Assembly (NCBI RefSeq): GCF_022846255.1
Contig: NZ_AP025682.1
DNA: 64,000 nucleotides
Strand: one strand, 5' to 3'
From: Escherichia coli
GTDB taxonomy: Bacteria > Pseudomonadota > Gammaproteobacteria > Enterobacterales > Enterobacteriaceae
Shown here: one piece after another, positions 4,533 through 39,285 of the stretch
Layout: the number at the start of each line of letters is the position of its first letter
Numbering within the stretch: position 1 is the stretch's first letter
Made by a program: the position numbers and the translations under genes
Notes under the pieces: model-generated
The model's database searches: none
What the model saw: only the letters and a program-made list of their open reading frames with translations
Told to the model about the DNA's origin: nothing

Positions 4533-5042
4533 ATGTCTTCCCGCAATAATCCGGCGCGTGTCGCCATCGTGATGGGGTCCAAAAGCGACTGGGCTACCAT
4601 GCAGTTCGCCGCCGAAATCTTCGAAATCCTGAATGTCCCGCACCACGTTGAAGTGGTTTCTGCTCACCGCACCCCCGATAAACTGTTCAGCTTCGCCGAA
4701 AGCGCCGAAGAGAACGGTTATCAGGTGATTATTGCGGGCGCAGGCGGCGCAGCGCACCTGCCTGGCATGATTGCCGCCAAAACGCTGGTGCCGGTGCTGG
4801 GCGTGCCAGTACAGAGCGCCGCACTGAGCGGTGTCGATAGCCTCTACTCCATCGTACAAATGCCGCGCGGCATTCCGGTGGGTACGCTGGCGATTGGTAA
4901 AGCTGGCGCGGCAAACGCGGCGTTACTGGCAGCACAAATTCTTGCGACTCATGATAAAGAACTGCACCAGCGTCTGAATGAATGGCGCAAAGCACAAACT
5001 GATGAAGTGCTGGAAAACCCGGACCCGCGAGGTGCGGCATGA
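4533..5042 (+). CDS. purE: N5-carboxyaminoimidazole ribonucleotide mutase PurE
   Basis: [20 protein letters not shown]...; ATG at 4533 (the ORF-track start at 4506 is an upstream extension). Confidence 0.93.
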
Positions 5043-6106
5043 AACAGGTTTGCGTCCTCGGTAACGGGCAGTTAGGCCGTATGCTGCGTCAGGCAGGCGA
5101 ACCGTTAGGCATTGCTGTCTGGCCAGTCGGGCTGGACGCTGAACCGGCGGCGGTGCCTTTTCAACAAAGCGTGATTACCGCTGAGATAGAACGCTGGCCG
5201 GAAACCGCATTAACCCGCGAGCTGGCGCGCCATCCGGCCTTTGTGAACCGCGATGTGTTCCCGATTATTGCTGACCGTCTGACTCAGAAGCAGCTTTTCG
5301 ATAAGCTCCACCTGCCGACCGCACCGTGGCAGTTACTTTCCGAACACAGCGAGTGGCCTGCGGTGTTTGATCGTTTAGGTGAGCTGGCGATTGTTAAACG
5401 TCGCACTGGTGGCTATGACGGACGCGGTCAATGGCGTTTACGCGCCGATGAAACCGAACAGTTACCGGCTGAATGCTACGGCGAATGTATTGTCGAGCAG
5501 GGCATAAACTTCTCAGGTGAAGTGTCGCTGGTTGGCGCGCGCGGCTTTGATGGCAGCACCGTGTTTTATCCGCTGACGCATAACCTGCATCAGAACGGCA
5601 TTTTGCGCACCAGCGTCGCTTTCCCGCAGGCCAATGCACAGCAACAGGCGCAAGCTGAAGAGATGTTGTCGGCGATTATGCAGGAGCTGAGCTATGTGGG
5701 CGTGATGGCGATGGAGTGTTTTGTCACCCCACAAGGTCTGCTGATCAACGAACTGGCTCCGCGTGTGCATAACAGCGGTCACTGGACGCAAAACGGTGCC
5801 AGCATCAGCCAGTTTGAGCTACATCTGCGGGCAATTACCGATCTGCCGTTACCGCAACCAGTAGTGAATAATCCGTCGGTGATGATCAATCTGATTGGTA
5901 GCGATCTGAATTATGACTGGCTGAAACTGCCGCTTGTGCATCTGCACTGGTACGACAAAGAAGTCCGTCCGGGCCGTAAAGTGGGGCATTTGAATTTGAC
6001 CGACAGCGACACATCGCGTCTGACCGCGACGCTGGAAGCCTTAATCCCACTGCTGCCGCCGGAGTATGCCAGCGGCGTGATGTGGGCGCAGAGCAAGTTC
6101 AGTTAA
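5039..6106 (+). CDS. purK: N5-carboxyaminoimidazole ribonucleotide synthase PurK
   Basis: 355 aa ATP-grasp protein; start overlaps the purE stop (ATGA). Confidence 0.95.
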
Positions 6107-6338: not shown

Positions 6339-7232
6339 CTACAGCGAAATACAAGTCCCCGCTTCGCCCGCCAGCGTCTCTTCAATCCGCGATAACGCCC
6401 CAATCCACGCGGGTTTACCACGGCTTCTGACATAGCCACTCACCGCCGTTACCTTCGGCCCCATCGAACCATCGGCTTTGGCAAATGGCGCTAACTCATC
6501 CGGTGTGGCATGGCGAATGGCACGTTGCTGCGGCGTTCCCCAGTTTTCATATACCGCATCAGCATCGGTGAGGATCACCAGTCCATCGGCATTAATCTGC
6601 TCGGCGAGCAACGCAGCGGCGAGATCTTTATCAATCACCGCTTCACTCCCTGCCCCGTCTTCCGTCACAGGCACACCGCCGCCGCCACTGCAAATCACCA
6701 CATGCCCCTCTTTGAGCAACAACTCGATGGCTTCGCTGTCGAGAATTTTACGCGGTTGCGGAGACGCCACCACCCGGCGTAAATATTTACCATCACGTTT
6801 CATCTGCCAGCCGTAAGCCGCTTCCAGTGCCTCTTGTTCTTCTGGCTGATAAACCGGACCAATAAATTTCTCTGGCTGTAAAAACGCCGGATCATCAGGC
6901 GAAACCTCAATGCGCGTCAGCACCGTCGTGACAGGCGGCATCTGCGGCTGTGCGCTCAAGCTCTGCGCCAGCATATAGCCAATCATCCCCTGGCTTTCCG
7001 CCACCAGTACATCCAGCGGATACGGTTCTACCTCTTTCCACGCCAGATTCTGTAACGCCAGCAGCCCCACCTGCGGTCCGTTGCCGTGAACAATCGCCAG
7101 CCGATAAGAACGGGCCAGGCGCGCCAGCGCGGGTACAGCACTGGCAATATTGCGATATTGATTTTTTGCCGTCAGCGCCTCACCGCGCTGGAGTAAGGCG
7201 TTGCCCCCAAGAGCCACAACCAGTGTTTTCAT
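6339..7232 (-). CDS. ybcF: Carbamate kinase-like protein (allantoin/oxamate pathway)
   Basis: [18 protein letters not shown]... amino-acid kinase family; ATG at 7230-7232 (the ORF-track start at 7346 is an upstream extension). Confidence 0.9.
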
Positions 7233-8044
7233 GGTTTCCCTTGTAATAATTGTTGGCCAAGCCAGAACCCCAGCAGCGTATCGGCCCCTGACGTATGCCC
7301 CAGCGCCAGCAGCGAATCGATCGCCGCTGCGGTACGTTTCGGGCAACTCAGAGCATGAACAAAGTGCAGGAGTGGCGAGGCGAAATATCCTTGCGCGGCA
7401 TAACGTAAATAACTGACGCTCACCGCAGTGGTAACGAGTTGAAGATTGTCGGAACAGGCAAAAAACGGGCGACCGGAGCGCGCATCTAAAGCACCATAAT
7501 ACCAGGCCGCCAGCAGCATTCCGCTCAGCGTGTCATCATGACTTGGCGTTAATCCGGGGCCTTTACCCAGCCAGTGCCGCCAGTCGGTCTTAACGCCATT
7601 GAGCGCGGCCTGAAAACAGTGACGAAACTGGCGTAATTCAGCAGGCAGCGGATCGCTTGCCGCCAATGCCAGTGGCCCGAAAAGCCCGGTTTCCTCCGCG
7701 CGTTGCATCCATGCAACGGCAAGCGGTTGAGGATGCGCAGGCGGCGTAATACGTAGCAAACAATAACGCTGTGGCTGTTTAACCGTGAAACGCCCGAGAC
7801 GAATCCCTTGTGCCACAACCTGTGGTCGTTCATTGCCGCATAATCCACCGCATAACGCATCGAATTGCGCGCGGCGAAGCACCCATCCGCCGGGGCCGAA
7901 ACCACTCCCCTGACGATGCAGCGTTAACAGTTCGCCGCTTTCCGTCATCAGGTTAATCGCCCGCCGCCACACTCCCGCTAACCGCCAGGACTGGCGATAA
8001 TTCGGTGCGCTACGGCTGGCAAGTAGAGGATGGATGATCGTCAT
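7229..8044 (-). CDS. ylbF: YlbF, DUF2877 protein of the fdrA-ylbE-ylbF-ybcF operon
   Basis: [20 protein letters not shown]..., 271 aa; ATG at 8042-8044; stop overlaps the ybcF start. Confidence 0.85.
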
Positions 8045-8054
8045 TGTGCGTTCC

Positions 8055-9314
8055 TCAACCAATCCCCATGCTTTCAGCCAGTGCTTCCAGCGCCTGTTCA
8101 AAGCACGCCAGCGGTGCCCGCACGGTGCCTGCGCCAATCTGCCCGATCCCCGCCTCTTTATGGGCGATACCGGTATTGATGAGTGGCGTAATGCCGGTTT
8201 CTACCACGCGACGAATGTCCAGCCCCAGGCACGCCCCCTGGAAATCCCAGCCGGGGATCTGCAATTGCATATTGCGTTCAAGGTAAATTTCCGCCATCTC
8301 TTCAGATACCGCTCTGGCCGCTTCCATGCCACCCGCACCGACAAAGCGCGTTACGCCAGGCGCTGCGATCATTGCCGCACCTCCGATACCAAAGGTTTCG
8401 GTAATCGCGCTATCGCCCATATCCGGGTTCGCCTGCTCCTGCGAGAAGCCGGTGAAAAACAGACCTTGCGGAGTGTTTACAGGCGCAGTAAACCAGCGTT
8501 CACCCAGCCCGCTTACCCGAATCCCGAACATATTGCCGTTGCGGGTCATAGCCGTAACGATGCTGCCTGCGCGGATCATCGCGCCTGCATCCATCGCCGC
8601 CTTGCAGTAGGCCATCGCGAGATTGAGGAAGAACTGATCGGTCACGCTGAGGAAATCCATCACTTCGGCGATGTGCTGTTTATCATGATCGAGGCGAGCA
8701 ATTTGTGGGGCCAGCGCACGCATTAACAGTGCAGAGGAAGCAATATTGCGTTGATGGAACTCATCGCCCATGGTAATGCCCTGCGCCATCATTGCCGTGA
8801 GATCGATACCGCGCTCCATGCGCCCCAGCGCCGCGCTTAATACTGGCATTAACACATCGCGCATCCAGCGATGGCGAGTCAGGACATCTTCGCCGTAAGC
8901 GCCAAAACGCATCACTTTGCCGATACCTTCGTTGAGGTTGCAGTACGCCCGGTTGCCGTCGGTCACGTTCTCGACCACCAGCATCGGCATACTGGCAGAA
9001 GTAATGCCACCCATTGGCCCGACGGCATTCACATGGTGACAAGGAATGAAGTTCACTTCCCCCTGCTCCAGTATTGCCAGCGCCTGCGCTTCATCTTTCG
9101 CCCAGCCTTCGAACAGACATGCGCCCACGCACGCCCCTTTCATGGGTCCGGTCATCTCCTGCCAGCGCATTGGCGGCCCGGCGTGAAGCAGTGTTTTGCC
9201 CTTGTTTAGTTCGCTGATAAGTGAAGAAGCCGGTTGCACATCCAGCCAGTGTGGACGAGCGCGACGAATTTGTTCGATAACCGCAGCATTGGCTTGCGCC
9301 ACTGATGTAAACAT
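8055..9314 (-). CDS. ylbE: YlbE, DUF1116 protein; intact 419 aa
   Basis: Uninterrupted 419 aa ORF between fdrA and ylbF. Confidence 0.85.
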
Positions 9315-34854: not shown

Positions 34855-35772
34855 ATGCTTATCTTTATCCCTATTCTCATTTTTGTCGCGCTGGTCATTG
34901 TTGGCGCGGGCGTCAAAATCGTGCCGCAGGGCTATCAGTGGACAGTAGAGCGTTTTGGTCGCTATACCAAAACGTTACAGCCAGGTCTAAGCCTGGTGGT
35001 GCCCTTTATGGATCGCATTGGTCGCAAGATCAATATGATGGAGCAAGTGCTCGACATCCCTTCCCAGGAAGTTATCTCGAAAGATAACGCCAACGTTACC
35101 ATCGACGCCGTGTGCTTTATTCAGGTGATTGATGCCCCGCGCGCCGCCTATGAAGTCAGCAATCTGGAGCTGGCGATCATCAACCTGACCATGACTAACA
35201 TCCGTACCGTGTTGGGTTCAATGGAACTTGACGAAATGCTCTCTCAGCGCGACAGCATCAACTCACGCCTGCTGCGTATTGTCGATGAAGCCACTAACCC
35301 GTGGGGGATTAAAGTCACCCGTATTGAAATTCGCGACGTGCGCCCACCGGCAGAGCTTATCTCTTCAATGAACGCGCAGATGAAAGCGGAACGTACCAAA
35401 CGCGCTTACATCCTTGAAGCGGAAGGGATCCGTCAGGCGGAAATCCTCAAAGCCGAAGGTGAAAAACAGTCGCAAATCCTGAAAGCGGAAGGTGAACGTC
35501 AGTCGGCATTCTTACAGGCCGAAGCGCGTGAACGTTCTGCCGAAGCGGAAGCCCGCGCCACCAAAATGGTGTCTGAAGCCATTGCCTCCGGCGATATTCA
35601 GGCGGTGAACTACTTCGTAGCACAGAAATACACCGAAGCGTTACAGCAGATCGGTTCCTCCAGTAACAGCAAAGTAGTGATGATGCCATTAGAGGCCAGC
35701 AGCCTGATGGGGTCGATTGCCGGGATTGCCGAGCTGGTGAAAGACAGCGCCAACAAACGGACTCAGCCATGA
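34855..35772 (+). CDS. qmcA: SPFH/stomatin-family protease QmcA
   Basis: 305 aa with N-terminal TM segment and band-7 domain. Confidence 0.93.
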
Positions 35773-36227
35773 TGGAGTTAATGGTCGTTCATCCACATAT
35801 TTTCTGGCTCAGTCTCGGCGGGTTGCTGCTGGCAGCCGAGATGCTGGGCGGAAATGGTTATTTGTTGTGGAGCGGCGTGGCAGCGGTGATTACCGGTCTG
35901 GTGGTCTGGCTGGTGCCGCTGGGTTGGGAGTGGCAAGGGGTGATGTTTGCCATTCTGACACTGCTCGCCGCCTGGTTGTGGTGGAAATGGCTGTCGCGGC
36001 GGGTGCGCGAACAAAAGCACAGCGATAGTCATTTAAACCAGCGCGGGCAGCAGCTGATTGGCCGACGTTTTGTGCTGGAATCTCCGCTGGTCAACGGGCG
36101 CGGTCATATGCGCGTCGGTGACAGTTCATGGCCTGTCAGCGCCAGCGAGGATCTCGGTGCAGGTACGCATGTTGAAGTCATTGCGATAGAAGGGATAACG
36201 CTGATCATCCGTGCGGTCATCGCCTGA
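35769..36227 (+). CDS. ybbJ: NfeD-like membrane protein YbbJ
   Basis: 152 aa; start overlaps the qmcA stop (coupled SPFH/NfeD pair). Confidence 0.9.
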
Positions 36228-36312
36228 TGCGACGCTGACGCGTCTTATCATGCCTACAAAATATGCCCGAATCGTAGGCCAGATAAGGCGCTTGCGCCGC
36301 ATCCGGCATATA
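36222..36312. repeat. REP element pair
   Basis: gcctgatgcgacgctgacgcgtcttatcatgcctac ... gtaggccagataaggcgcttgcgccgcatccggc. Confidence 0.75.
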
Positions 36313-36329
36313 GCCGAGTAGAGGCAAAA

Positions 36330-36692
36330 TTACTCTTCCCGGCCTTTACCCATACTTTTTTGGTCTTCATCCGGATAGTGTTTTTTTAGATATTCCAGGA
36401 CGTTTTTATTGACCTTGTGTTGGGTATACACCCACCCTTTCCAGTAATCAGGTTGGTCCAGGTAAACTTCTGGCGGAATGGTGAAATCAGAAAGCGTTAA
36501 CCATTCGGCTAACAGATCGGGGTTTCGTTTCTGGATCAACTGCAACAGCATGATCAGCGACATGGCAGAGGCAGGAGCCGTACTATCGCCGCTTAAATAC
36601 TTCCACACTGTCGACCGGTTCGAACGAAAAAGGATCGGTAGCAATGCCCGGTCCAGATTCATTTCATTAAAAATCTTCTCAAATTCATTCAT
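36330..36692 (-). CDS. Hypothetical 120-aa protein, possible Cro/C1-like HTH; not recognised as a K-12 gene
   Basis: Clean ORF with caggaaa RBS 7 nt upstream of the ATG; the segment RSTVWKYLSGDSTAPASAMSLIMLLQL resembles an XRE-type recognition helix; divergent from the adhesin gene. Confidence 0.55.
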   Translation of the reverse strand: MNEFEKIFNEMNLDRALLPILFRSNRSTVWKYLSGDSTAPASAMSLIMLLQLIQKRNPDLLAEWLTLSDFTIPPEVYLDQPDYWKGWVYTQHKVNKNVLEYLKKHYPDEDQKSMGKGREE

Positions 36693-37057
36693 TTAAATTT
36701 CCTGCCTGGCGTAAACCTCTTAAAAATTGAGATTTATCAAAGAAACGCATTTTAGCACACATCAGGAACCGCTTCACGTTTAGTCCAGAAACAGAATTTA
36801 TTTCGCTTATCAAAACAAGTCTTTACTCTTTTTTACATTGAAAGAGCACGAAATAATTTCCTTTTTTATTTATATAAGAAACTATTTTTGTTTCTTATTG
36901 GTGGTGTTTACGCTTACACAATACAAAAATGCGCTTTACATCACACAAATGGCGGCGTAGATTTCGATCAAATTGCAACGCAGTTTATTTCTTAAAACAA
37001 TATTATTTGTTTCTTATAGAAACATTAATGCGACTTATTTTGAACAAGAGAAAATGA

Positions 37058-38074
37058 ATGAAAACTGTAAACGTAGCTTTACTGGCACTCATAATTTCAG
37101 CAACATCCAGCCCTGTTGTTTTAGCTGGTGATACCATTGAAGCGGCGGCAACAGAGCTTTCAGCCATTAACTCCGGCATGTCGCAATCGGAGATTGAGCA
37201 GAAGATTACCCGCTTTTTAGAACGCACAGACAACAGCCCCGCTGCGTATACCTATTTGACTGAACATCACTACATCCCTTCTGAAACACCTGATACCACT
37301 CAGACTCCCACTGTCCAGACAGATCCTGACGCAGGACAAAAAACCGTTGCCGCTACAGGTGATGTACAGACAACCGCCCGTTATCAGAGCATGATCAACG
37401 CCCGACAGTCTGCGGTAACTGACGCCCAGCAAACGCAAATTACAGAGCAACAGGCGCAGATCGTAGCCACACAAAAAACGCTCGCCGCGACTGGAGATAC
37501 GCAAAATACCGCGCATTATCAGGAGATGATTAATGCCAGGCTGGCGGCTCAAAATGAGGCTAATCAGCGCACTACCACGGAACAAGGGCAGAAAATGAAT
37601 GCACTGACAACCGATGTGGCAGCACAACAGCAAAAAGAAAGGGCTCAATACGATAAACAAATGCAAAGTCTGGCGCAGAAGTCTGTCCAGGCACATGAAC
37701 AAATTGACAGCCTGTCACAAGACGTAACCCAAACGCATCAGCAGTTAAGCAACACGCAAAAACGAGTAGCGGATAATAGCCAACAGATTACTACGCTCAA
37801 TAACCATTTCAGTTCGCTGAAAAACGAAGTTGAGGACAACCGTAAAGAAGCCAATGCGGGAACTGCATCAGCCATCGCTATCGCCTCACAACCACAGGTG
37901 AAAACCGGTGACGTGATGATGGTGTCAGCGGGAGCGGGAACGTTCAACGGTGAATCTGCGGTGTCTGTAGGAACATCTTTTAATGCCGGAACGCATACGG
38001 TACTTAAAGCAGGTATTTCTGCGGATACACAATCTGATTTCGGTGCGGGTGTCGGCGTGGGATATTCGTTCTAA
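37058..38074 (+). CDS. Short head-less trimeric autotransporter adhesin (type Vc, YadA-like C-terminal anchor)
   Basis: Signal peptide MKTVNVALLALIISATSSPVVLA|GD; Q/T-rich coiled-coil stalk with a 45-aa tandem repeat; C-terminus ...SAVSVGTSFNAGTHTVLKAGISADTQSDFGAGVGVGYSF fits the 4-strand YadA anchor ending in an aromatic residue. Confidence 0.75.
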   Translation: MKTVNVALLALIISATSSPVVLAGDTIEAAATELSAINSGMSQSEIEQKITRFLERTDNSPAAYTYLTEHHYIPSETPDTTQTPTVQTDPDAGQKTVAATGDVQTTARYQSMINARQSAVTDAQQTQITEQQAQIVATQKTLAATGDTQNTAHYQEMINARLAAQNEANQRTTTEQGQKMNALTTDVAAQQQKERAQYDKQMQSLAQKSVQAHEQIDSLSQDVTQTHQQLSNTQKRVADNSQQITTLNNHFSSLKNEVEDNRKEANAGTASAIAIASQPQVKTGDVMMVSAGAGTFNGESAVSVGTSFNAGTHTVLKAGISADTQSDFGAGVGVGYSF

Positions 38075-38127
38075 TTTTAACAGCAATTTCTTATTCGCAA
38101 TTTTCCGCACATTATTTAAGGTTAACA

Positions 38128-38550
38128 ATGATGAATAGCTCCATTAAATCGTTTTCCCTGCTGGCGGTTATATTACTGGCTGGCTGTAGCTCACCCGCTT
38201 CCCGCATCGCAGATTGCCAGGCGCAGGGCGTCAGTCATGACACCTGTTACCTCGCAGAACAGCAGCGTCAGTCGGCTATTTTAAGTGCATCCGAAGCGCA
38301 GGCATTTAAAAATGCAGATGCCGCACAACATGCCCAGGCGGCAAAGAAAGCCATTTATAAAGGATTTGGCATGACCTTTAGAATGAGCAGTAAAAACTTT
38401 GCTTATCTCAATGATTCATTATGTGCAATTGATGAAGACAATAAAGATGCCACTGTTTATCAGTCAGGTCTGTATAACGTCATTGTTTATCACCATACGG
38501 GAAAAGTCGCCTTAATGAAGGAAGGTCAGTTTGTGGGTTATTTAAAATGA
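38128..38550 (+). CDS. Hypothetical lipoprotein (lipobox LLAGC, +2 Ser)
   Basis: MMNSSIKSFSLLAVILLAG|C signal/lipobox; aagg RBS; lies 53 nt downstream of the adhesin gene on the same strand. Confidence 0.65.
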   Translation: MMNSSIKSFSLLAVILLAGCSSPASRIADCQAQGVSHDTCYLAEQQRQSAILSASEAQAFKNADAAQHAQAAKKAIYKGFGMTFRMSSKNFAYLNDSLCAIDEDNKDATVYQSGLYNVIVYHHTGKVALMKEGQFVGYLK

Positions 38551-38750
38551 AGGAGCAAAGGAAAATCCCCCTGACGCATATTATGATTATCGGTGCGTTT
38601 ATTTTTGCCTTCTTGCAAGTGGTGTTATTAGCCTCCCTGGTTCACGCTGTGAATGTTAACAACGAAATCCAGGAAGGCTTATTTCAGTCGGGGCGCATTA
38701 TGGTAGAAAGTTTGCAGCATATTCTTTCGGTGCAAACGGAGATTAACTGA
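38547..38750 (+). CDS. Hypothetical 67-aa single-pass membrane protein
   Basis: Start overlaps the lipoprotein stop (ATGA); one hydrophobic helix IMIIGAFIFAFLQVVLLASLV; stop lies 3 nt from the cueR stop. Confidence 0.5.
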   Translation: MKEQRKIPLTHIMIIGAFIFAFLQVVLLASLVHAVNVNNEIQEGLFQSGRIMVESLQHILSVQTEIN

Positions 38751-38753
38751 TTT

Positions 38754-39161
38754 TCACCCCGCCCGATGATGACAGCAGCCGGAGAGATTTTCGATAATCG
38801 GGCAGTCGGCGCTGTCATCGCCAGGGCAGGCATTCGCCAGCGCCAGTAGCTGGTTGCGCATGGATTGCAGTTCTTCGATATGCCGTTCGATCTCCGCCAC
38901 CTTCTCCAGCGTACGACGTTTGACGTCGGCACTATGACGCTGCGGATCGTTAAACAGATTCACCAGTTCGCCGCTCTCCTCCAGGTTAAAGCCCACCTGG
39001 CGTGCCTGGCGCAGTAAGGTCAGTTCGTTGAGATGCTGCTGCGTGTAGGTGCGATAACCGTTTTCGCTGCGCATCGGCGGCGTCACCAGCCCCTTCTCTT
39101 CATAGAAGCGAATGGCTTTGCTGGTCAGGCCGGTAATTTTTGCTACATCGCTAATGTTCAT
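38754..39161 (-). CDS. cueR: MerR-family Cu(I)-responsive regulator CueR
   Basis: 135 aa with N-terminal MerR HTH and C-terminal metal-binding Cys residues. Confidence 0.95.
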
Positions 39162-39285
39162 CGTTCGCGCAACGCCTCCTGTGCTTTGTTAAAGGGTTTC
39201 AACAAATATTCAAGCACGTTTTTTTGCCAGTGCGAATATCGACCGCCACCACAATAATACAGGAAGTACTGCGCACAGAGAGATG

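Follow-up and report, generated by a model that had tools for sequence, protein, structure and literature searches.

The window analyzed here, a 64,000-nucleotide stretch of Escherichia coli DNA (contig NZ_AP025682.1), carries between ybbJ and cueR a 2.5-kb islet that, judged by its junctions and encoded proteins, is the already described O-island 29 (OI-29) of enterohemorrhagic E. coli (EHEC) O157:H7 EDL933. On balance, we read OI-29 as an ancient, variably retained and regulated envelope cassette, in which an autotransporter is encoded together with candidate accessory envelope proteins. As a locus it is ordinary, being a known O-island present in a quarter of complete E. coli genomes; what has not been described as such is its conserved lipoprotein partner. 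All four open reading frames (ORFs) that an original prediction had placed between ybbJ and cueR were found intact at their positions and are missing from K-12, and the gene calls (a helix-turn-helix (HTH)-like protein, a head-less YadA-type autotransporter, a lipoprotein and a small membrane protein) were upheld.

Yang et al. 2018 (PMC5826968) described OI-29 as a 2,643-bp island with z0638, z0639 (gmrA) and z0640. The lambda-Red homology arms from that study were mapped to the annotated O157 chromosome and to the window, where the OI-29 arms enclosed 2,643 and 2,535 bp (36219-38753), respectively, with the same junctions. The window islet is the shorter because it has fewer copies of a repetitive extragenic palindromic (REP) element at its left end. 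The z0640 arms flank the coding sequence (CDS) of the 120-aa protein, the z0638 arms flank that of the lipoprotein, and the gmrA arms enclose exactly the CDS named 'YadA family autotransporter adhesin' in RefSeq. The gmrA cloning primers start at ATGAAAACTGTAAAC (MKTVN...), and the FLAG primer stops at ...GYSF; with both deletion and cloning primers mapping there, 'GmrA' is the autotransporter ORF itself. Window proteins are 97-99% identical to their O157 counterparts, and the ybbJ-cueR site is shared. The view that the arrangement could not be assigned to a characterized E. coli system is thus superseded by the description of z0638-z0640, in which three genes were considered and the 67-aa gene was not among them. 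All three annotated genes are transcribed in O157 (20-96 reads per kilobase per million). Ogura et al. 2007 (PMC2323221) had listed ECs0548, a 'Saa-like protein' of S-loop 43 in strain Sakai, as absent from K-12, present in UTI89 and APEC O1, and not found in CFT073 or 536; from its name, location class and strain distribution, ECs0548 is very likely z0639.

The sequence features of the 338-aa protein are those of a head-less type Vc (trimeric) autotransporter: a Sec signal peptide (19-residue hydropathy maximum of 2.05 at residues 6-24), a four-strand YadA-type anchor, a stalk continuous with that anchor, and a C-terminal aromatic residue (Phe). Pfam PF03895 YadA_anchor matched residues 279-338 with an E value of 2.6e-11, covering the whole 60-position model, and phmmer comparison with solved anchors returned AtaA (1.4e-6), Hia (2.4e-6), and YadA (0.027) (PDB 9vnj, 2gr7, 3emo, 2lme), that of AtaA being the most similar. 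Hydrophobic residues occupy 0.67 of the a/d positions of the stalk, as compared with 0.41 ± 0.04 in shuffled sequences, and this value was reached in 0 of 2000 shuffles. The N-terminal tip is swapped in other Escherichia alleles (415-586 aa), in which residues ~91-338 hold ~75% identity; for the anchor, nonsynonymous divergence (dN) across Escherichia species is 0.009-0.064. Pfam families of heads, necks or stalk motifs were found neither here nor in any of the 22 homologues that related cassettes encode. In two or three head-less cassette autotransporters (alignment A4, L005-L052), collagen triple-helix repeats (PF01391, best E 1e-8) replace part of the coiled coil. In the type Vc family, three chains form a 12-strand outer-membrane barrel via the β-barrel assembly machinery (BAM), with the passenger at the cell surface. 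By analogy with this established biology, the 338-aa protein would trimerize and display a fiber of ~25-30 nm at the surface.

A coiled-coil stalk followed by a YadA anchor is also seen in Saa, the Eib proteins and the phage family PHROG 17426 'adhesin', the last of which matched residues 95-338 of the window protein (E 1.8e-21). Unlike the members of this group, the window gene is chromosomal, lies outside a prophage, and is accompanied by its own regulator and lipoprotein genes. Phage-borne relatives, with identities of no more than 42%, are matched over stalk and anchor only, no match in sequence to the solved EibD fragments was obtained, and phage genes are absent from the vicinity; a prophage or Eib origin was rejected on these grounds.

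Homologues of the islet lipoprotein are confined to Enterobacterales and a few other Gammaproteobacteria. When species-representative genomes were scanned, 25 species had a full-length homologue, and in 14 of them this gene is preceded by a YadA-anchor ORF, with -38 to +327 nt between the two; among these linked species, the divergent HTH gene is also present in 8 and the 67-aa gene in 2. The order HTH (divergent)/YadA-anchor/lipoprotein is repeated in Hafnia, Pseudocitrobacter, Rahnella, Yersinia and Ewingella, in differing genomic contexts, and Enterobacter loci hold the YadA-anchor/lipoprotein pair without the HTH gene. Because it is conserved across genera, the autotransporter-lipoprotein pairing is more than a chance neighborhood. 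In the window, the two genes are 53 nt apart, and the operon-like linkage expected of a helper is conserved across taxa; the lipoprotein stop and the 67-aa start overlap at ATGA, through which the two genes appear to be translationally coupled. For all four islet genes, the 67-aa ORF included, the ratio of dN to synonymous divergence (dS) is 0.01-0.20 across four Escherichia species, and all four are under purifying selection. One lipoprotein homologue came from a record labeled Chryseobacterium sp. 18061 (L017, CACSKA010000003.1), the neighbors of which are like those in Enterobacter sp. JUb54; the record is probably mislabeled or contaminated. In Pseudocitrobacter faecalis (L007:801-4532 and 7050-8936), two tandem autotransporter-like genes precede the lipoprotein gene and a 64-aa gene, and the Serratia silvae cassette has HTH and lipoprotein genes only, without an autotransporter.

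The lipoprotein has a lipobox (LLAG/C20) with Ser at +2, followed by a helical hairpin with conserved Cys30 and Cys40, a long A/Q-rich helix and linker, and a predicted C-terminal 8-stranded β-barrel. The lipobox Cys is invariant in 25 homologues, lipobox variants occur in 25 of 27 sequences examined, and the paired cysteines are conserved. At +2, the 25 homologues with a detected lipobox have Ser, Thr or Gln, never Asp. The residue after the lipobox Cys predicts lipoprotein sorting, and by this +2 rule the protein would be sorted to the outer membrane. The 67-aa protein has one transmembrane helix (hydropathy maximum 2.65 at residues 14-32, after K2, R5 and K6), and its gene shows a dN/dS of 0.17-0.20 across Escherichia species.

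Searches of Pfam, NCBIfam, PHROGs, PADLOC and PDB sequences returned nothing significant for the lipoprotein or the 120-aa protein, and an AFDB search of the lipoprotein found uncharacterized family members only. Sub-threshold matches of the lipoprotein to the XAC1346 family of secretion chaperones (NCBIfam E 0.0037, 17.8 bits, cutoff 120) and to TraV lay mostly over the signal peptide and first helix and were kept as a lead only; no paper on XAC1346 was found in the literature. With the barrel (window 38350-38550) as query, Foldseek returned stand-alone barrel proteins of 79-121 aa from Enterobacterales at 18-54% identity (mostly 36-54%). One of these, E5YG62 (41% identical to the barrel), bears the unverified label 'NfeD-like C-terminal domain'; the neighboring ybbJ encodes an NfeD protein. 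The lipoprotein homologue is broken at one shared point in five Citrobacter species and in one record labeled uncultured Raoultella sp. (L049-L051, L053-L055, around 5001-5604), so that N-domain and barrel are encoded by separate ORFs in different frames. Buttiauxella, Atlantibacter, Pseudomonas and Aeromonas have lipoproteins of 63-82 aa that comprise the Cys-hairpin N-domain and no barrel (L033, L037-L039, L041-L044, L046-L048). From these split genes and N-domain-only lipoproteins, it follows that the hairpin and barrel domains also exist separately.

To our knowledge, the only helper proteins of trimeric autotransporters are SadB and TpgA. As in the islet, SadB and SadA of Salmonella (Grin et al. 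2014, PMC3953254) are a small lipoprotein and an autotransporter encoded in one operon, and SadB shares with the islet lipoprotein a lipid anchor, a helical Q-rich segment and a C-terminal β domain. The SadBA unit, like OI-29, is absent from K-12, and the SadB family has orphan paralogues (YajI). The two systems differ in that sadB lies upstream of the autotransporter gene and encodes an inner-membrane lipoprotein, whereas the islet gene lies downstream and its product, with Ser at +2, is predicted to reach the outer membrane. SadB has a nine-heptad coiled coil and a MATH-like β-sandwich in place of the predicted 8-strand barrel, and SadA is a very long, head-bearing adhesin, as compared with the 338-aa head-less protein of the window. 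In the AtaA-TpgA system of Acinetobacter sp. Tol 5 (Ishikawa et al. 2016), TpgA sits on the periplasmic face of the AtaA anchor in an A3B3 complex (Yoshimoto et al. 2025, PMC12523085). TpgA is built from a BamE-like N-domain and an OmpA-type peptidoglycan-binding domain, neither of which is detectable in the islet lipoprotein; in fold, domain content and sorting, the latter falls outside both the SadB and the TpgA families. The tpgA gene is presumably downstream of ataA in Acinetobacter sp. Tol 5, as is the lipoprotein gene in the islet.

A 2026 global screen of autotransporter neighborhoods found no helpers past SadB and TpgA. This screen would miss the islet lipoprotein, since the YadA head domain that it required excludes head-less autotransporters. 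We tentatively raise the possibility, toward which the balance does not yet lean, that the OI-29 lipoprotein (with the coupled 67-aa protein in Escherichia and Pseudocitrobacter) is a third, unrecognized class of dedicated accessory factor, specific to the head-less, stalk-only autotransporters of Enterobacterales. If this were true, its corollary would be that 'transcription factor GmrA' is a mislocalized autotransporter with an indirect effect on motility via the envelope. The occurrence of this lipoprotein family after head-less autotransporter genes in many Enterobacterales makes it a cheaply testable candidate for a third helper.

The 120-aa protein has a predicted N-terminal five-helix Xre/Cro-C1-type HTH fold and a helical C-terminal domain, and this fold and its position make it a candidate for the regulator of the cassette. 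Aca2, HigA2 and MqsA have the folds nearest to it; matches to Pfam MqsA_antitoxin (E 0.12) and a HigA2 profile (E 0.087) were weak, and NCBIfam gave none. The divergent 365-bp intergenic region holds blocks conserved between Escherichia and Pseudocitrobacter (alignment A5). Its only forward promoter-like site is TTTACA/TAGATT, both hexamers of which lie in the best-conserved block, both Pseudocitrobacter loci included. GAAAC/GTTTC occurs 6 times as compared with 0.98 expected (P 0.0006 for a motif picked post hoc), two palindromes included.

In the proposed mechanism, the lipoprotein and the 67-aa inner-membrane protein would be co-expressed with the autotransporter and act on the same envelope structure, as suggested by synteny and spacing. 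By analogy with SadB and TpgA, the lipoprotein would most likely stabilize or assist the autotransporter from the periplasmic side, with an unrelated fold. The divergent HTH protein would regulate the cassette through the conserved AT-rich region with its TTTACA/TAGATT promoter and GAAAC half-sites, and this promoter region is likely silenced. Co-transcription, sorting, interaction and the target of the regulator are all steps that we infer.

The islet is carried by 1377 of 5426 complete E. coli genomes (25%) and is missing from K-12, as expected for the accessory region first proposed. A further 966 of these genomes hold an unrelated insert at the ybbJ-cueR site, ~0.8 kb long in S4 and up to ~1.3 kb elsewhere, and those with neither the islet nor this insert have a K-12-like junction; with these alleles coexisting, the site is at least tri-allelic. 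The window itself is E. coli, with 98.5% identity across 6 kb of flanking sequence. The S4 insert (L002:1129-1957; site equivalent to window 36228-38753) contains a frameshifted 'hypothetical protein' and follows the same islet-type ybbJ end and REP. No complete genome matched the window islet at 99% identity or more, and the closest E. coli match (NZ_CP026755.1, 331031-335267, 98.8%) has an IS1397-family insertion inside the matched region. IS1397 targets REP sequences and bacterial interspersed mosaic elements (BIMEs).

In E. marmotae, E. ruysiae and E. whittamii, too, the four islet genes occupy the ybbJ-cueR junction, and dS relative to E. marmotae is 0.25-0.50 for the islet genes, 0.59 for ybbJ and 0.42 for cueR. 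From the site shared by four Escherichia species and a dS on a par with the flanking genes, it follows that the islet is old rather than recent: it has long resided at this locus, and many lineages have lost or exchanged it. Of the usual marks of a genomic island, deviant composition and patchy distribution were seen; mobility genes, tRNA or repeats, and a divergence out of step with the flanks were not. Neither the ORF list nor the repeat search revealed an integrase, transposase, tRNA or meaningful flanking repeat at the islet. In Pseudocitrobacter sp., Franconibacter helveticus and Serratia silvae (L009:3136-7683, L052:3655-9823 and L025:4297-7620), the cassette lies upstream of qmcA and not between ybbJ and cueR. 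Its position beside qmcA-ybbJ-cueR could reflect an old linkage to the neighborhood or a functional tie to the SPFH/NfeD pair.

With these data, a reading along the lines of the original prediction, by which the region would be a recently, horizontally acquired pathogenicity islet encoding a host-cell adhesin, becomes improbable. Its low GC content is no evidence of recency, given the shared site and flank-like dS. The patchy presence in 25% of complete genomes and the enrichment that Yang et al. (PMC5826968) reported for pathogenic lineages speak for this reading, and the absence of an integrase, tRNA and flanking direct repeat speaks against it. The P. faecalis cassette lies 1.3 kb upstream of a large serine recombinase gene and for this reason may sit on an integrated element. 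A further point against recent acquisition is that the cassette is found beside qmcA-ybbJ-cueR as far afield as Pseudocitrobacter, Franconibacter and Serratia. As for the adhesin, the protein has no head domain, and deletion of OI-29 left adherence to HeLa and Caco-2 cells unchanged (PMC5826968), so that 'adhesin' is here a family name and not a finding. In a second alternative, the autotransporter has the lipoprotein and the 67-aa protein as mere neighbors in the genome, both being envelope proteins independent of it, and the lipoprotein could be, for example, a PliC/MliC-like periplasmic inhibitor or a binding protein. We regard this as unlikely, though by no means far-fetched: the lipoprotein gene directly follows a YadA-anchor gene in 14 of 25 species, which is not chance at a few copies per genome, the cassettes have tightly spaced genes in unrelated genomic contexts, and Pfam MliC gave no match to the lipoprotein. 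It is extremely improbable that the 120-aa protein is an antitoxin or defense regulator and the islet a toxin-antitoxin or anti-phage locus. The protein does resemble the Aca2/YdiL/HigA2/MqsA type, to which its nearest folds belong, in its length (~120 aa), in the five-helix Xre-type HTH at its N terminus and in the helical domain at its C terminus. Unlike Aca2, HigA2 and MqsA, however, it reaches no Pfam family threshold and has no anti-CRISPR or toxin partner; no toxin-like ORF is in operon with the HTH gene, which is consistently divergent from an autotransporter gene, and PADLOC returned coiled-coil noise on the autotransporter only.

The reading of OI-29 as an envelope cassette has several results to contend with, among them the normal adherence of the OI-29 deletion. 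The lipoprotein is found without an adjacent autotransporter in 11 of the 25 species, and in the tree such orphans and the linked copies intermingle. The linkage is thus far beyond chance, yet not obligatory: the pairing first proposed stands, and the word 'dedicated' attached to it was too strong. Orphans do not exclude a helper role, since SadB too has an orphan paralogue (YajI). Similarity of the lipoprotein to SadB, YajI or TpgA was looked for and not detected, and the 67-aa gene, although equally placed in Pseudocitrobacter, is confined to that genus and Escherichia. GAAAC is not enriched in the Hafnia, Yersinia and Ewingella cassettes; for this reason, and because the motif was picked after inspection, it is a candidate operator only. 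There are also the results of Yang et al. 2018 (PMC5826968), in which GmrA is reported to bind the fliA promoter, to activate its transcription and to be required for motility in nine strains. These authors described specific shifts at 0-120 nM in electrophoretic mobility shift assays (EMSA) with competition, chromatin immunoprecipitation followed by quantitative PCR (ChIP-qPCR) with 7.75-fold enrichment at the fliA promoter, epistasis with fliA, and complementable motility defects, including eight strains beyond the first; deletion of z0638 or z0640 gave no motility phenotype. The claim has been restated in two reviews.

Despite this body of work, we consider it very improbable that native GmrA binds DNA directly as a transcription factor at the fliA promoter. 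The gene that was deleted and cloned is the ORF with the Sec signal peptide and YadA anchor, and the mature protein has a pI of 4.9; a cytoplasmic DNA-binding role is therefore hard to reconcile with it. No recognizable DNA-binding domain was found in GmrA with Pfam or NCBIfam. Its only DNA-related domain match was TMF_DNA_bd (E 0.054), among coiled-coil artifacts (SMC, AAA_13, ATG16), and the SMC match had an E value of 1.7e-5 against a curated cutoff of 567 bits; the 'DNA-binding domain' claimed for GmrA may be such an artifact, for instance TMF_DNA_bd or SMC. For EMSA, the full precursor was used, its signal peptide made internal by an N-terminal His tag, and for ChIP, 3xFLAG had been fused behind the terminal Phe. 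From what is established on the biogenesis of outer-membrane proteins, both constructs should block normal export or BAM-dependent assembly and, because the tags mask these signals, are silent on the native protein. Through primer gmrA F-1, the complementing fragment also takes in the greater part of the AT-rich control region, and a genuine HTH protein, z0640, is encoded next door. The motility phenotype of the gmrA deletion may well be real and indirect: the effect on fliA would follow from an envelope change or from the constructs, with direct promoter binding unlikely. If GmrA is an exported autotransporter, the OI-29/fliA regulatory model needs re-examination, and the HTH protein z0640 has been overlooked.

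Features of the islet and its flanks in the window, by position
Feature	Position	Strand	Note
ybbJ	35769-36227	+	left flank of islet
Islet-type ybbJ 3' end, last ~9 codons	36200..36227	+	homologous to K-12 end, strongly diverged; left edge of polymorphic segment
REP pair (BIME-like)	36222..36312	.	overlaps ybbJ TGA stop codon; read from the sequence
120-aa ORF (z0640 orthologue)	36330..36692	-	predicted Xre/Cro-C1-type HTH protein, divergent
Divergent intergenic region, 365 bp, AT-rich	36693..37057	.	GC 0.307
Palindrome ATAAGAAAC-N7-GTTTCTTAT	36874-36898		intergenic
Putative sigma-70-like promoter, TTTACA-17 nt-TAGATT	36935..36963	+	faces autotransporter operon; consensus scan
Palindrome GTTTCTTATAGAAAC	37009-37023		intergenic
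338-aa ORF (z0639/gmrA orthologue)	37058..38074	+	head-less trimeric autotransporter, by sequence features
Sec signal peptide, residues 1-23	37058..37126	+	MKTVNVALLALIISATSSPVVLA before the predicted cut, GD after it; K2, hydrophobic core, V-L-A before predicted cut
Variable N-terminal tip, residues 24-93, with P/T-rich linker	37127..37336	+	allele comparison
Two tandem 45-aa repeats, residues 94-138 and 139-183	37337..37606	+	self-comparison: 20/30 identities at offset 45
Heptad coiled-coil stalk, residues 184-275	37607..37882	+	runs into anchor in one continuous register
YadA-type membrane anchor, residues 279-338	37892..38071	+	ends ...VGVGYSF; Pfam and PDB matches
140-aa ORF (z0638 orthologue)	38128..38550	+	lipoprotein
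67-aa ORF	38547..38750	+	single-pass membrane protein
cueR	38754-39161	-	right flank of islet

In K-12, the ybbJ stop (TAA) abuts the cueR stop (TCA) with zero intergenic bases, and the two genes are adjacent and convergent as stated in the original prediction. The REP pair on the ybbJ stop was also seen as described, as was the distance of 3 nt between the last islet stop (TGA, 38748-38750) and the cueR stop. The GC content of the islet is 0.441 as compared with 0.526 for the window and is the lowest among all of its 2.5-kb stretches, in line with the AT-richness first noted; the horizontal acquisition read into this, if taken as recent, is contradicted by the site shared among four species, the flank-like dS and the lack of mobility genes. 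Alignment of the K-12 junction confirmed that the insert is absent there and moved its left edge into ybbJ: identity is high to 36199 and breaks down at 36199/36200, and the 10 last codons contain 5 synonymous and 3 amino-acid differences. Repeats at 36208-36224 and 38806-38822 (17 nt, 82% identity) could not yield the K-12 junction, and searches around the islet gave only chance-level repeats, without insertion signatures. The Rfam search of the islet returned sub-threshold matches to naRNA4 (REP-derived) at 36188-36254 and 36277-36344 and no RNA element apart from these REP-like matches. Owing to the REP pair, a megablast search with the islet as query hit each E. coli genome at several places (median 6). 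The 3' end of the autotransporter ORF contains a weak terminator-like hairpin (38045-38069), which was not taken as an operon break.

On the 3' side of cueR, O157, E. marmotae and E. ruysiae have HlyD-type adaptor and ABC genes of a type I secretion system (L001:4667-5909, L057:6464-9380 and L058:6576-9443). At this site, the window has only a 124-nt remnant (39162-39285) that is 99% identical to K-12, and the type I secretion site is thus a second presence/absence polymorphism adjoining the islet.

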